Positions 53,475 to 57,974 of a stretch of 64,000 nt of DNA are shown one piece after another. The notes under the pieces are model-generated. The model did no database searches. It saw nothing but the letters and a program-made list of their open reading frames with translations, and was not told the DNA's origin. Position 1 is the stretch's first letter. Each line of letters opens with the position of its first letter. The translations under genes were made by a program, and so were the position numbers. Source of the DNA: Acidobacteriota bacterium (lineage in GTDB: Bacteria; Acidobacteriota; UBA6911; RPQK01; JAJDTT01); contig OZ253580.1 of NCBI GenBank assembly GCA_965263035.1, positions 256,001 to 320,000 on the forward strand. The letters are read 5' to 3'.

Positions 53475-55805
53475 GTGCTCCTGGTGGGTGTGGTCCGCCT
53501 CCTGACCGAGGAGCAACAGCGTCCTCGACTCGCCGTTGATCGGAATCAGACCGTCGAGTTGGTGGGCCGGATCGATCACCCGCCTCTCGCGCTGAAGAGG
53601 GGGTTGTATCTGGAGATCACTCCCCTCTCGGTTCGGCAAGCGGGCCGCGATCTTTCCCTTCCCGGCAAGGTGGCTCTCTACGTCTACTCCCTTCCCGGAG
53701 GATCCGAGTCGGAGCCATTCCTCCGCTACGGCGAGAGACTGCGGGTCAGCGCCTTCCTGGAGGACCCGACCCACCACGGAATCCCGGGAGTGGACGACCT
53801 GCGCCTGCGCTTCTGGCATCGGGGAATCGTGGGAGTGGTGCGTCTCAAGTCGCACCTCCAGGTCCGGCGCCTGGGGCCGGATCCGGGATGGGATCCGCGA
53901 AGGCCGCTGTTCGCGTATGTCCGATCGTTCGAGCGCTTCTGCCGGCGGACCCTGAAGCCGGAGCAGGAGAATCTGGTCCTGAGCACCCTTCTGGGTCAGA
54001 CCCGCCGGCTCGAGGAGGTCGATCGCGTCAGCATCGAGAAGCTGGGAATCTTCCACCTCTTCGCCGTGTCCGGATTTCACGTCTCACTGGTCTACCTGTT
54101 TCTCCATCTCCTGTCCCGTCCCCTGGGGTTGGCCGGGCGCCTCCTGGCTCTGGCCGCCGTCTGGAGCTATGTCGTGGCCGTGGGAGCTCCCGTCTCCGCC
54201 ATCCGGGCCGGACTCATGGCCAGTTGGATCCATCTCCTCTTGTCGTTGGGCCTGAAGTCCCAGTTCCTCAACGGTCTCGGTGTGGCCGCCCTGATCACGT
54301 TGGGGTTCCGTCCCCAATCCCTTCATACGGCGAGCTTCCAATTCTCCTATCTGAGCCTCCTGGCCATTGGGCTCTGCGTCTTTCCGGTCCAGCCCTGGAT
54401 CCAGACCCTGCGGCGAACCGCATGCTCGGTTTTTTTGCCTCAAGTCCGGGTCGAGGCGACGACCCCGGGACGACTGGGACGGCGAATCCGATACCGTCTG
54501 GAGCATCTCCTGGAGCCGCTGCCCCGAACCCTGTCCCAATCCCTGGTTCCCGCGTTGAGCCGCGGCTCCGGATCGGTCCTTTCATTGGTCTCGTGCACGC
54601 TCTGCATCCAACTGTTCACGCTGCCTCTGGCCCTCTACTACTCCAACCTCTGGTGCTGGACCCATTGGCTGTCCAATCTGGTCCTGGTTCCCTGCTTCTC
54701 CCTCTTCCTGCTGGCCGCCTTTCTCCTGCTCATCACCTACTGGCTTCCCACCGGAGAGAGTCTCTCCGTGCTGGTGGGGACGGTGGCCGATCTGATCCGT
54801 ATGCTGATGGAACTGGTGCAGTGGATCGCCACCATTCAGTACGTGCCCCACCCCTCGACCGCCGAGCTGATCCTCTACTTCCTGCTTCTGGGACTGGGCC
54901 TGATCCTGGGCCGGAGGGCACTCCACCTCCTCTGGCTGGCGCCGGTGCTCCTCTTCCTGTCCGTCACCTGGGAGTCCGATTCGGCGACCGGACAGCTGGA
55001 GGTCACCCTGCTGGACGTGGGCCAGGGGGAGAGCATCCACATCTCCTATCCCGACGGATCCCACGCACTGGTGGATACCGGGGGCCGCTGGTCGTGGGAT
55101 GCGGAGCCCAGCCGCTTCGTCGGGCAAAGACTGGTGGGACGCTACCTCTGGCACCGGAGAATCCGGAACCTCTCCTACGTCCTCTTGACCCATCCCCATC
55201 AAGACCACGTGCAAGGTTACGAGTTCATCCGGCAGGCCTTCCCGGTGGGACAATTGATGGTTGCGGAACCTCCGGCCGGAGAGCTGCCGGAACAACGGCT
55301 GACCCTGAGCGACGGTCAGGCCTTTTTCCAGGGGGGAGTCGGGCATCGGGTGCTCCATCCACCCGGGAAGGGGGACCCGGTATGGAACTCCGCCGGCGCC
55401 AACAACAGGTCCGTGGTCCTGCTCCTCGTGTACGGGCGCTTCCGCATGCTGTTGACGGGAGACATCGACCGGAACATCGAGGGGAGATTGATCCCCAGGC
55501 TGGGACGGACGGCGGTCCTCAAGGTGGCACACCATGGGAGTGGCTCCAGCAGCTCTTCCCCGTTCCTTTCCCGGCTGCGGCCCCGGGTGGGCCTGATCTC
55601 GGCTGGACGCAAAAACCCCTTCGGTCATCCCTCCCAGGCCGCCCTGCACCGCCTCCGCCGGGCCGGAGCGCTCCCCCTCTCCACCAGCCAATGGGGGAGC
55701 CTGCGCGTGAAGACCGACGGACGAAGCTGGCGGGTCGCCCACTACCGGCGCCAGACCGATAGCTTTTGTCCCATCACCGGAGGATTTGTGGAAGAGGAGA
55801 ATTGA
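53475..55805 (+). CDS. comEC: DNA internalization competence protein ComEC/Rec2 (start uncertain)
   Basis: HLFAVSGFH, SFQFSY, LDVGQGES, THPHQDH, KVAHHGS, FGHP. Confidence 0.94.
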   Translation: MLLVGVVRLLTEEQQRPRLAVDRNQTVELVGRIDHPPLALKRGLYLEITPLSVRQAGRDLSLPGKVALYVYSLPGGSESEPFLRYGERLRVSAFLEDPTHHGIPGVDDLRLRFWHRGIVGVVRLKSHLQVRRLGPDPGWDPRRPLFAYVRSFERFCRRTLKPEQENLVLSTLLGQTRRLEEVDRVSIEKLGIFHLFAVSGFHVSLVYLFLHLLSRPLGLAGRLLALAAVWSYVVAVGAPVSAIRAGLMASWIHLLLSLGLKSQFLNGLGVAALITLGFRPQSLHTASFQFSYLSLLAIGLCVFPVQPWIQTLRRTACSVFLPQVRVEATTPGRLGRRIRYRLEHLLEPLPRTLSQSLVPALSRGSGSVLSLVSCTLCIQLFTLPLALYYSNLWCWTHWLSNLVLVPCFSLFLLAAFLLLITYWLPTGESLSVLVGTVADLIRMLMELVQWIATIQYVPHPSTAELILYFLLLGLGLILGRRALHLLWLAPVLLFLSVTWESDSATGQLEVTLLDVGQGESIHISYPDGSHALVDTGGRWSWDAEPSRFVGQRLVGRYLWHRRIRNLSYVLLTHPHQDHVQGYEFIRQAFPVGQLMVAEPPAGELPEQRLTLSDGQAFFQGGVGHRVLHPPGKGDPVWNSAGANNRSVVLLLVYGRFRMLLTGDIDRNIEGRLIPRLGRTAVLKVAHHGSGSSSSSPFLSRLRPRVGLISAGRKNPFGHPSQAALHRLRRAGALPLSTSQWGSLRVKTDGRSWRVAHYRRQTDSFCPITGGFVEEEN

Positions 55806-55810
55806 GGAGC

Positions 55811-55836
55811 GGAGCGGCGGCTTTCTTGCCGCCGAT
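55811..55836 (-). repeat. REP unit forming the 3' exon of the intron
   Basis: Minus strand ATCGGCGGCAAGAAAGCCGCCGCTCC. Confidence 0.85.
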
Positions 55837-55839
55837 TGG

Positions 55840-56469
55840 ATCGGGTCGAGTGCAGGGGATTGCGCCCCTGCACCCTCCCACACCACCGGACGTACCGTTT
55901 TCAGTATCCGGCGGTTGGAGTCACTCGAGGCTCTTTCGAGCCTCGTAAAGGGCCTTTCTTTCCGGTTTTCGCCGCCGCTGGGACTTGATCTCCGCCCTTC
56001 CGGCTTGACGGGTTCCACCCTTGGGCCTTCCGTGCCGGGTCCGAGGGGCCTCCCCCCGCCCCGTTTCCGGAGGTAGTTGCGATCCCGCTGACGAGTCCAC
56101 CATAGGGCCAGTCCGACTCCTTCGGTCCTTCGCTCCACCGGCATTATCCGGCTTCTTCGCTACTATGACCTCTGCTGACTTCTCAAAGGCTCTCACCCTT
56201 GAGATCTCCCCGAGTAAGGTGCTGCATCTTTCCCCCCGGGCCGCCCGGCTCTACCTGGTACGTCTGGATGGGGTTCGGGTTTCGCTGTTGCTCGCCAGCT
56301 CACCGCCCGCACCCGGCCTCGCTGCCGGTTCGTGTTCCTGCGGTCGTGGGTTTGCCTTCCGCTTCCTTCAGCTTCACCTCGCGGCTACGCCTTGCGGTTC
56401 GGCTAGGGTTGGTCCCATCACCTCCCTTGGGATCTTTCATCCCTTAGATACAGCCCATGTCGGGCGCAC
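55840..56469 (-). mobile_element. ORF-less group IIC intron (630 nt)
   Basis: 5' GTGCGCCCGACATGGG; DI end TACTCGGGGAGATCTC; DIII AAGTCAGCAGAGGTCATAGTAG...GAAGGACCGAA; DV ACCGCCGGATACTGAAAACGGTACGTCCGGTGGT (CGC triad, CG bulge); DVI with bulged A seven nt from the end; 3' ACCCGAT; no RT ORF. Confidence 0.92.
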
Positions 56470-56531
56470 GAGCGGCGGCTTTCTTGCCGCCGATTCGGGG
56501 GGGCAGGGGGGGCTGGAAGCCCCCCCTCTAC
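56470..56531 (-). repeat. REP units forming the 5' exon of the intron
   Basis: Minus strand GTAGAGGGGGGGCTTCCAGCCCCCCC...ATCGGCGGCAAGAAAGCCGCCGCTC immediately before GTGCG. Confidence 0.85.
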
Positions 56532-56597
56532 ACACCCCCCACACACCCTCAAATTCGTATACTAAGGCCTGATCGCGTTCACGAGACCCAAACCGCC

Positions 56598-57974
56598 GTG
56601 TCTCAGAAATCTCTCCTACAAAAAAACCACGCCCCATCCTACGCCACCTCTCGCAGGCTGGTGGACGCAGTCGGTTGTTGGTGCGCGTTAGGCTACGGGG
56701 CCCTCGCCTATCTGGCGCGACAGCCCGGTGAACCGGATCTGTCCATCTTCTTCGTCCTGGCGGCCTGGACCGGACTTCCGGTCTTCGGACTCTACTTCTA
56801 TTTTCGGCGGCGGGGCGAACCGTTTCCGATCGGGCGCATGTTCTTCTGGGCCGTGGTGTTCAGGGTCTTCGGCCTCGTCGGTGGACCCTTTTTCGAGGAC
56901 GACTTCTATCGTTACCTATGGGACGGCTACCGATTCGCCACGGCCGGAACGCCCTACGGCGCGGCGCCGGAGGCGTTCTTTCTGGACACGAACGTTCCGG
57001 CGGCGTTTCAACAATCGCTGGACAACATCAACAACCCCGACCTGCCGACCATCTACGGACCGACGACGCAGCTCCTCTTTCTGCTGGGCTACTGGCTGCA
57101 ACCGGGCAGCGTGACGGCACTGCAGTTGATCCTGATCCTGATCGACCTGGGTATGGTCTGGGTCCTGCTCCGTATGACGCCAGCCCGGAACGTCATGCTC
57201 TACGCGTGGTGTCCACTAGTGGTCAAGGAGATCGCCTTCACGGCCCATCCGGACGGCGCCGGAGCCTGCCTGCTCATGGCGGCGATCCTGCTCGTCCGAA
57301 ACCGGCGCCGGGGAAGCGCCGCCGTCTGCCTGGGGATGGCCGCCGGGGCCAAGATCTTCGCCTTGGTGCTGGCGCCGTTGGTGTTGCTGCGAGCTCGACC
57401 CCGCCACTGGTTGCTGTTCGGCGCTACACTCGCCGGGTTGTATGCTCCATTCGCCCTGATGGGCGGCACGAACCTCACCTCGTTGCAGGTTTTCGCACGG
57501 GAATGGGAGTTCAATTCCGCGGCCTTCGGCTTGCTGGGGACCCTGTTGCCACGGTTCGAGGCCCGGCTGATTCTGGGTCTGATGTTCGCCGTTTTCTGGC
57601 TGCGCCAGGCCGCCAGGTTTGCACGAGGCGGCCAACACGCCATCCCCCGGGGCGATTGGCTCTACGGAGGGTTGCTCGTGGTTTCCCCGGTGATCAATCC
57701 CTGGTATCTCCTCTGGTTGCTCCCGTTCGCGGCCATCTTCCCCAGCGCCTGGGCCTGGACGGCCTCGGGCGCCGTCCTGCTCAGCTACGTGATCGGAATC
57801 CACCTGGATGACTACACCTTGCAGGCCTACCAGCAGCCGACATGGATCCGATTCCTGGAATTCGGTTTGATCTTGCTGGCGCTGGCCGGCGACCTGATCC
57901 GGCGGCGGTCCACAAGCCTGGATGTCGGAACGGACCCCGGGCATAGCGCCCATATGCCATGTACGAGAACCTGA
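56598..57974 (+). CDS. Polytopic membrane glycosyltransferase (GT-C, GT87/DUF2029-like)
   Basis: EDDFYRYLWDG, INNPDLPTIYGP, YAWCPL, WEFNS, PVINPWY; start inferred. Confidence 0.8.
   Translation: MSQKSLLQKNHAPSYATSRRLVDAVGCWCALGYGALAYLARQPGEPDLSIFFVLAAWTGLPVFGLYFYFRRRGEPFPIGRMFFWAVVFRVFGLVGGPFFEDDFYRYLWDGYRFATAGTPYGAAPEAFFLDTNVPAAFQQSLDNINNPDLPTIYGPTTQLLFLLGYWLQPGSVTALQLILILIDLGMVWVLLRMTPARNVMLYAWCPLVVKEIAFTAHPDGAGACLLMAAILLVRNRRRGSAAVCLGMAAGAKIFALVLAPLVLLRARPRHWLLFGATLAGLYAPFALMGGTNLTSLQVFAREWEFNSAAFGLLGTLLPRFEARLILGLMFAVFWLRQAARFARGGQHAIPRGDWLYGGLLVVSPVINPWYLLWLLPFAAIFPSAWAWTASGAVLLSYVIGIHLDDYTLQAYQQPTWIRFLEFGLILLALAGDLIRRRSTSLDVGTDPGHSAHMPCTRT

Follow-up and report, generated by a model that had tools for sequence, protein, structure and literature searches.

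The window analysed here is a 64,000-nt stretch of Acidobacteriota DNA (contig OZ253580.1, positions 256,001 to 320,000), belonging to a genome that consists of a single 6.198-Mb contig (G000:C1). Towards its end, a comEC-like gene and an open reading frame (ORF) with a weak GT87-like match are both found on the + strand, and between them, antisense to both neighbours, lies a 630-nt ORF-less group IIC intron (Table 1). The 3' end of the comEC-like gene is 35 nt away from the 3' end of the intron, which sits within a tandem pair of hairpins resembling repetitive extragenic palindromes (REPs). An earlier note, made from the letters of the window, had already placed the intron antisense to both genes and had proposed a non-autonomous class IIC retroelement served by a reverse transcriptase (RT) encoded elsewhere in the genome. 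Our analysis supports this proposal, the trans-mobilisation itself being read from the pattern of copies: the window intron is, in our judgement, very probably a young, intact member of an RT-less class C family which is mobilised in trans by the RT of full-length copies.

The boundaries and the architecture of the ribozyme largely came out as the earlier note had described them. On the minus strand, the intron opens with GTGCG at 56469-56465 and its ACCCGAT end reaches 55840. Two Rfam models matched at their gathering thresholds, namely RF02001 (group-II-D1D4-3) at 56221-56388 with 81.4 bits (cut-off 32) and RF01998 (group-II-D1D4-1) at 56125-56218 with 47.2 bits (cut-off 35). For domains V and VI (DV and DVI), a local Rfam search of 55700-56650 with permissive thresholds gave a match to the full-length RF00029 model at 55835-55916, with 39.4 bits and an E-value of 4.6e-6 (curated cut-off 40). 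This match, just below the curated threshold, is real, and the intron call stands. The minimum free energy (MFE) fold of the 630 nt (-270.6 kcal/mol; z-score -2.74 against 20 shuffles) is composed of six domains, DI to DVI. The proposed end of DI, TACTCGGGG, matches the CCCGA/UCGGG helix that closes this domain, and the short DII and DIII were both recovered in the fold and in the RF01998 match.

The earlier reading of DV needed minor correction. Its position and its CGC triad, which the Rfam alignment sets against the consensus AGC, were as proposed. Its 2-nt bulge is present, and only the letters given for it failed: the fold reads AC, and CG appears after a one-base register shift. The description of DV as short is only marginally true, as the domain counts 34 nt when the A-U pair that closes it is included; in the MFE fold, its upper helix has 4 bp and its loop reads AAAA. 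In DVI, the bulged A predicted at 55846 is unpaired in the MFE fold, at intron nucleotide 624. The structural features that define group II introns are found here, with the 5' GUGYG and 3' AY in the GTGCG and ...GAT ends, six helical domains in the MFE fold, the triad and 2-nt bulge in DV, and, in DVI, a bulged A at the distance from the 3' end usual for these introns (7-8 nt). The assignment to class IIC is further supported by the target, a hairpin with a 4-nt intron-binding site 1 (IBS1), and by the RT, whose closest solved relative is that of GsI-IIC.

Table 1. Features of the intron locus, and related loci elsewhere in the genome. Positions without a prefix are those of the window; intron numbering follows the MFE fold. 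EBS1, exon-binding site 1; IS, insertion sequence.
Feature	Position	Strand	Intron nt	Basis or remark
comEC-like gene, convergent with the intron	53475..55805	+		Pfam Competence 3.2e-35, Lactamase_B 7.1e-12
Second copy of the REP-like hairpin, directly after the 3' splice site	55811..55839	-		intron sits within a tandem hairpin pair
Complete ORF-less group IIC intron	55840..56469	-		630 nt; 5' GTGCG at 56469, 3' ...ACCCGAT at 55840
Domain I, closed by CCCGA/UCGGG	56209..56465	-	5-261	MFE helices; RF02001 match 56221-56388
EBS1 (GAGC), within a DI hairpin loop of 8 nt, GCGAGCAA	56290..56293	-		complementary to the GCTC ending 24/24 5' exons
Domain II, short hairpin	56177..56208	-	262-293	MFE helices; first hairpin of the RF01998 match
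Domain III	56124..56170	-	300-346	RF01998 match; MFE helices
Domain IV, 204 nt, without RT ORF	55917..56120	-	350-553	MFE; alignment to the 1848-nt copies
ORF-deletion scar: 8-bp stem with GAAA cap (CGAGGCUC-GAAA-GAGCCUCG), then the retained RT stop TGA	55926..55945	-		alignment with a full-length copy
Domain V: CGC replacing the AGC triad, 2-nt bulge, AAAA loop	55882..55915	-	555-588	RF00029 alignment; MFE
Domain VI, unpaired A at 55846 (intron nt 624), 7 nt from the 3' end	55842..55880	-	590-628	MFE; RF00029 alignment
5' exon target: REP-like hairpin CGGCGGC-AAGAAA-GCCGCCG, whose last G opens IBS1 GCTC (56473-56470)	56470..56492	-
Downstream ORF, weak GT87-like match	56457..57974	+		Pfam GT87 8.1e-4, below cut-off; syntenic in five congeners
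1.78-kb IS copy	G000:C1:3067891-3069672 (L025:1765-3264)
1.78-kb IS copy	G000:C1:3923464-3925242
Second-family group II intron locus	L132:3024-3167	-		RF02003
Second-family group II intron locus	L133:1319-1462	+		RF02003
Second-family group II intron locus	L134:1303-1446	+		RF02003

No RT coding was found in the window intron: DIV, estimated earlier at about 200 nt, measures 204 nt, and the 91-codon frame at 55921-56196 is without a Pfam match. We also rejected a coding potential for the RT-less copies more generally. In every copy, three sense and two antisense frames are open over at least 80 codons, and such frames across DIV are an effect of the GC-rich composition, not a gene. The first 175 nt of DIV are structured, with 41 predicted pairs, four of them showing compensatory changes across 11 sequences. 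The hairpin GAGGCTC-GAAA-GAGCCTC, which the earlier note had listed among the remains of DIV, was located at 55945-55926.

The 630-nt intron occupies 19 full-length places in G000 at 95-100% identity. These intact copies differ from each other at 0-33 positions, ten of them lying within at most four differences; no difference at all separates the window copy from that at G000:C1:1151210-1151839. Their boundaries are exact in 19/19 cases, with similarity running from GTGCG (GTACG in one copy) to ACCCGAT and with unrelated 3' flanks. Three more RT-less copies are interrupted, two of them by a 1.78-kb insertion sequence (IS) and one by a 4.7-kb composite insert, and two copies encode an RT. The family hence amounts to 24 members, 22 RT-less and 2 RT-encoding, a ratio of 11 to 1, and the possibility of a single decayed copy, raised in the earlier note, is ruled out.

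The three interrupted copies could have been taken for twintrons; we rejected this reading, the inserts being the 1.78-kb IS (twice) and the 4.7-kb composite. The 1.78-kb IS has terminal inverted repeats and about ten near-identical copies in G000, and the two copies that split RT-less introns do so at different positions. One IS copy spans both contig ends, which is consistent with a circular chromosome.

Both RT-encoding copies (C1:2572796-2574643 and C1:529488-531335) are full-length introns of 1848 nt, 99.7% identical to each other. Each contains an intact 409-aa ORF beginning MEQVV, in which RVT_1 (2.3e-38), GIIM (3.1e-7) and the YADD motif are present. RVT_1 and GIIM are its only domains, without an endonuclease domain, as expected of an RT/maturase of the class C type. 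The two ORFs are identical to each other and, with a ratio of nonsynonymous to synonymous substitution rates (dN/dS) of 0.27 relative to the homologue in G003, are under purifying selection. Among solved proteins, the closest is the GsI-IIC RT (E 1.6e-133), followed at 2.6e-101 by the chain of 7uim, an entry that bears the title 'Group II intron reverse transcriptase/maturase'. Next are 5hhl and 5hhj, with one chain each under the name 'Retron-type reverse transcriptase', and LtrA lies far behind (8.5e-35).

In a tblastn search with the 409-aa RT, the only matches besides the two complete copies were a fragment of 30 residues and four loci that encode a different RT (32-36% identity). The RT-less and the full-length copies are 98.6% identical over DI-DIII and 100% over DV-DVI, and the sequence of DV is the same in the full-length copies and in congeners. 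The different RT belongs to a second group II family with three intact loci and one interrupted RT locus, one copy lying about 2 kb upstream of a 23S rRNA gene. Three of the four RT loci were scanned with Rfam, and all three match RF02003 (group-II-D1D4-4) at about 91-93 bits.

Target choice in this family can be described by a simple rule. All 24 copies lie directly 3' of a hairpin followed by GCTC, and the 3' exon begins with C in 23 of them, so that the manner of insertion is that of class IIC introns (3' of a stem-loop, with short IBS1/EBS1 and IBS3). The GCTC pairs with EBS1 GAGC, read at 56293-56290. The usual target hairpin is GGCGRC-AAGAAA-GYCGCC, and the variants GGGGGTTGCAAACCCCC and GGGGACAAGGATGTCCCC as well as a non-repeat hairpin, GGCCATC...GATGGCC, are also used. 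From site to site the hairpin sequence changes in a compensating manner, and in one case the target is a non-REP hairpin; what is common to all targets is the hairpin shape and GCTC, not the hairpin sequence. The exon positions upstream of GCTC fall within the hairpin stem and are variable, which argues against a sequence-specific IBS2 (no dedicated EBS2 search was made).

Counted with a regular expression that we defined for the hairpin, G000 holds 243 hairpin+GCTC motifs, 22 of which are occupied, versus 213 hairpin+CCTC motifs, none of which is (Fisher 6.4e-7). A corresponding difference is seen between species. The EBS1/IBS1 pair is GAGC/GCTC in G000 (24 copies) and G004 (one copy), and GAGG/CCTC in G003 (6/6), G001 (one copy) and G008 (one copy). 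This co-variation across species is as would be expected of base pairing between EBS1 and IBS1.

The target hairpins are without a T-run and are frequently arranged in tandem, with 35 adjacent same-strand motif pairs in G000. Judged from these features, they appear to behave as a REP-like repeat and not as evident terminators. Since they are often tandem, the presence of a second identical hairpin after the 3' end of the window copy finds a simple explanation; a hairpin pair also surrounds three other copies. We considered and rejected a target-site duplication as the source of the twin hairpins at the window copy, because the genome contains the 35 adjacent pairs and intron-free tandems are common; the downstream hairpin is present in only 4/19 copies. 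A G-rich hairpin precedes 66 of the 243 hairpin+GCTC motifs and, when a strict pattern is applied, 7/14 of the composite units made of the G-rich and the target hairpin are occupied, far above the 22/243 seen overall. Two loci of the genome, L135:1501-1731 (+) and L136:1501-1677 (-), also match Y1_Tnp (PF01797) weakly, with 39 and 36 bits; they possibly encode tyrosine transposases of the REP-associated type, which might be responsible for moving the hairpin repeats.

Comparison with congeners suggests that the window copy is a recent arrival. In all five syntenic congeners examined (G001-G005), the spacer between comEC and the next gene is intron-free and 113-334 nt long, versus about 830 nt in the window, and the intron would therefore have been gained recently at this locus. 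The GT87-like ORF as listed overlaps the end of the intron, and its true start probably lies further downstream. Upstream of this ORF, a block of about 55 nt (56552-56607) is conserved in all five congeners; it holds an inverted repeat, GAGAC-N12-GTCTC, and a TATACT box on the + strand, and it may represent a promoter or operator of the GT87-like gene.

The orientation of the copies follows replication. Taking dnaA at 2.872 Mb and the minimum of the cumulative GC skew at 2.86 Mb as markers of the origin, the sense strand runs along fork movement in 20/24 copies (binomial p 0.0015), which amounts to insertion into the lagging-strand template. This holds for 19-20 of the 24 copies irrespective of the assumed terminus. 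Among the motifs found with the regular expression, co-orientation with the fork is seen in 18/22 of the occupied and 97/221 of the empty ones (Fisher 0.0007). We rejected a bias in transcription orientation, about 12/24 copies being co-oriented with the upstream gene in a crude gene call (ORFs and GC content at third codon positions). The orientation of the window copy follows the replication fork, not transcription, and this copy may itself be silent.

Public sequencing runs were available as assembled contigs, two of them metatranscriptomes (X15, X16) and two of unrecorded kind (X14, X11), in which contig depth is not rankable. We rejected them as evidence of expression, since the word depth of the intron greatly exceeds that of its flanks in RNA and non-RNA runs alike. 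In one X15 contig, 55834 and 56470 are linked through 31 letters of other sequence, and the shorter side has only 24 letters. Because this junction lies inside the repeated hairpin, we discounted the contig as a sign of splicing or of an empty site.

Alignment with the full-length copies indicates how the RT-less form may have arisen. The ORF (about nt 521/532-1757 of the full-length intron) is absent from the RT-less copies, its place being taken by the GAAA-capped stem, and the RT stop codon is kept. The break-point is identical in 19/19 intact copies, and the three IS-broken copies align through it. As in Thermosynechococcus elongatus (PMC2882425), a break-point shared by all the RT-less copies points to a single ORF deletion followed by spread, from which all 22 of them would descend.

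Relatives of the family were sought in 40 genomes, with at most 14 candidates scored in each, and the counts are therefore minimums. RT-less copies were found in G001 (648 nt), G003 (657 nt) and G008 (650 nt), at least one in each, and RT-bearing copies in G003 (at least five) and G004 (at least one); among these 40 relatives, the search for the family gave no match in G002, G006 and G007. The scars differ by species: in G003 the beginning of the ORF is preserved (ATGGAACAGGTG...), G008 has a different 3' remnant, and G001 resembles G000 with a longer loop. Since they differ, the ORF appears to have been lost at least three times, independently, within the genus. In the fragmented assembly of G008 (L033 and others), many contigs end inside the intron, with pieces covering 1-144, 1-49 and 1-41 at the 5' side and 568-630 and 577-630 at the 3' side, which suggests that this genome holds a multi-copy intron family collapsed by the assembler.

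The RT-less lineage of G000 also looks mosaic. At sites where the full-length copies of G000 and the RT-less copy of G001 differ, its core is full-length-like at 22/26, and its DIV is G001-like at 37/50 discriminating sites. This pattern would be consistent with recombination between lineages, and lineage-specific change in G001 could account for part of it.

Considering all the above results, we infer that the RT-less family is best explained by trans-mobilisation, with the full-length copies supplying the RT. In the mechanism we propose, some RT-less copies would be transcribed, and the RT/maturase made from the full-length copies would bind and splice their RNA. The resulting particle would then reverse-splice at a hairpin+GCTC site, its substrate being the single-stranded DNA that a replication fork exposes on the lagging-strand template, and the RT would copy the inserted RNA into DNA. 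The abundance of REP-like hairpins, with 243 hairpin+GCTC motifs, would offer such an element many landing sites.

Several observations weigh against this model. Transcription, splicing and mobility are all deduced from the copy pattern. The window copy is antisense to both of its neighbours, the family as a whole follows the orientation of the upstream gene in only about 12/24 cases, and 4/24 copies are oriented opposite to the fork. The RF00029 score is 0.6 bits short of its curated cut-off, the loop of DV is AAAA and not the GNRA usual in group II introns, and the motif counts depend on our own definition of the hairpin. The 5' part of DIV is the usual binding place of group II RTs, and over its first 175 nt the RT-less and the full-length copies are only 78% identical, so that recognition of the RT-less RNA by the 409-aa RT is an assumption of the model. 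Furthermore, the second group II family is unrelated and has its own RT (34-36% identity), which may be an alternative helper.

The RT-less copies might be relics, spread in the past by a family that is no longer mobile and is now decaying. Three copies are already broken by insertion elements, older ones are up to 33 positions away from the youngest, and one has a GTACG 5' end. On the other hand, ten copies at different loci are separated by 0-4 differences over 630, the catalytic DV and DVI are unchanged, both RT ORFs are intact and identical with a dN/dS of 0.27, and the window site is empty in 5/5 congeners examined. We therefore regard the relic hypothesis as unlikely. A dispersal of the copies as DNA, in which they would travel with the REP-like repeat through a REP-associated transposase or through repeat recombination instead of reverse splicing, could be suspected given that the 5' flank is a repeated element, that 7/14 composite units are occupied versus 22/243 of all motifs, and that two weak Y1_Tnp matches exist in the genome. 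Such a process would not account for junctions that are always exact (after GCTC, at GTGCG and at ACCCGAT) next to unrelated downstream DNA, for hairpins that differ between sites, including one that is not a REP, or for the seven composite units that are empty. The match of EBS1 to IBS1 and its co-variation between species are, moreover, what reverse splicing would predict, and we give hardly any credence to a spread at the DNA level.

A different function can be envisaged from the HYERs (Liu et al., Science 2024). These are described as class IIC introns that lack an ORF and have a sequence-specific hydrolytic endonuclease activity (10.1101/2024.08.31.610620, PMC12990946). By analogy, the RT-less copies would act mainly as protein-free ribozymes, cutting single-stranded DNA or RNA by hydrolysis at hairpin+GCTC sites, and would be kept for this activity and not for retromobility. 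The length of HYER1, given there as 637 nt, is near the 630 nt found here, and the scar is a neat GAAA-capped stem and not a ragged deletion. However, the occupation of new DNA sites needs a cDNA step, and the cognate RT is present. We also saw by eye no self-complementary loop in DIII, unlike what is described for the HYER1 and HYER5 dimers, and only 4 nt of EBS1 complementarity are evident, versus the 6-nt recognition site reported for HYERs (PMC12990946). This explanation is thus very unlikely in our view, and we retain trans-mobilisation with an RT supplied by the full-length copies.

The element is a known kind of mobile element, not a new kind. It is readily placed among the class C introns, such as B.h.I1, O.i.I1 and GsI-IIC, which insert after hairpins. 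As in these introns, the ribozyme is small, DV carries a CGC triad, and insertion takes place immediately 3' of a DNA stem-loop, where IBS1 is short and IBS3 consists of one base; the full-length relatives likewise encode an endonuclease-less RT of about 410 aa, whose closest solved counterpart is the GsI-IIC RT. Unlike them, it lacks the RT ORF in 22/24 copies, targets REP-like hairpins without a T-run instead of evident intrinsic terminators, and carries an AAAA loop in DV. The bias towards the lagging-strand template is shared as well, a bias of this kind being reported for bacterial-C-type and ORF-less introns (PMC8919778). The HYERs, as described, are likewise ORF-less, class IIC and about 630 nt long (HYER1, 637 nt); a difference is that the genome studied here also contains an RT-encoding intron that is cognate to the RT-less ones, and the two are set side by side from their descriptions.

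The closest parallel in terms of population is T. elongatus, for which 17 ORF-less introns out of 28 are described and trans-mobilisation of TeI3 by TeI4 RTs was shown experimentally (PMC2882425). As reported for TeI3, all RT-less copies in G000 have one ORF deletion with the same break-point, they outnumber the RT-encoding ones (22 versus 2 here, 17/28 there), their insertion sites show good EBS/IBS matches, and RT-encoding relatives are found in the same genome. By contrast, the introns studied here are of class IIC, with hairpin recognition and a 4-nt IBS1, they form no twintrons, the interrupted copies being split by insertion elements, and their trans-mobilisation is inferred where that of TeI3 is experimental.

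Association with REPs also has a precedent in Pseudomonas putida KT2440, where a mobile intron is described in or beside a repetitive extragenic palindrome. The proportion reported there is 2/9 copies (PMC1525189), versus 22/24 at a repeat hairpin matching our regular expression in G000. A 2015 review portrays bacterial ORF-less introns as rare and nearly always accompanied, in the same genome, by related introns from which a protein acting in trans may come (PMC4424553). We set aside one further comparison, the intron of PMC12584367, as the source presents an unrelated IIB1 intron.

New in this genome are the scale, with 22 copies that lack the RT and 2 that bear it, a readable target rule, a natural one-base retargeting, a replication bias and a mosaic ancestry. 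The target rule can be read from 24 occupied versus more than 400 unoccupied sites, and a one-base switch in EBS1/IBS1 separates sister species. More tentatively, and with the odds in our opinion against it, the RT-less lineage might be a long-lived 'parasite of a parasite' and not a recent by-product, kept compatible with the local RT by recombination or template switching. In this view, a single-base change in EBS1, from GAGG to GAGC, would also have redirected the family within the REP-like hairpins of the host, away from the half that ends in CCTC and towards the half that ends in GCTC. As a bolder addition, drawn by analogy, the mini-introns may also cut REP hairpin DNA in the manner of HYERs and so shape REP dynamics.

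As with HYERs, RT-less introns are of practical interest as compact programmable ribozymes. Altogether, the system described here is suited to asking how hairpin-guided introns choose their sites, why small RT-less forms out-multiply their helpers, and whether RT-less forms stay matched to the helper RT by recombination.

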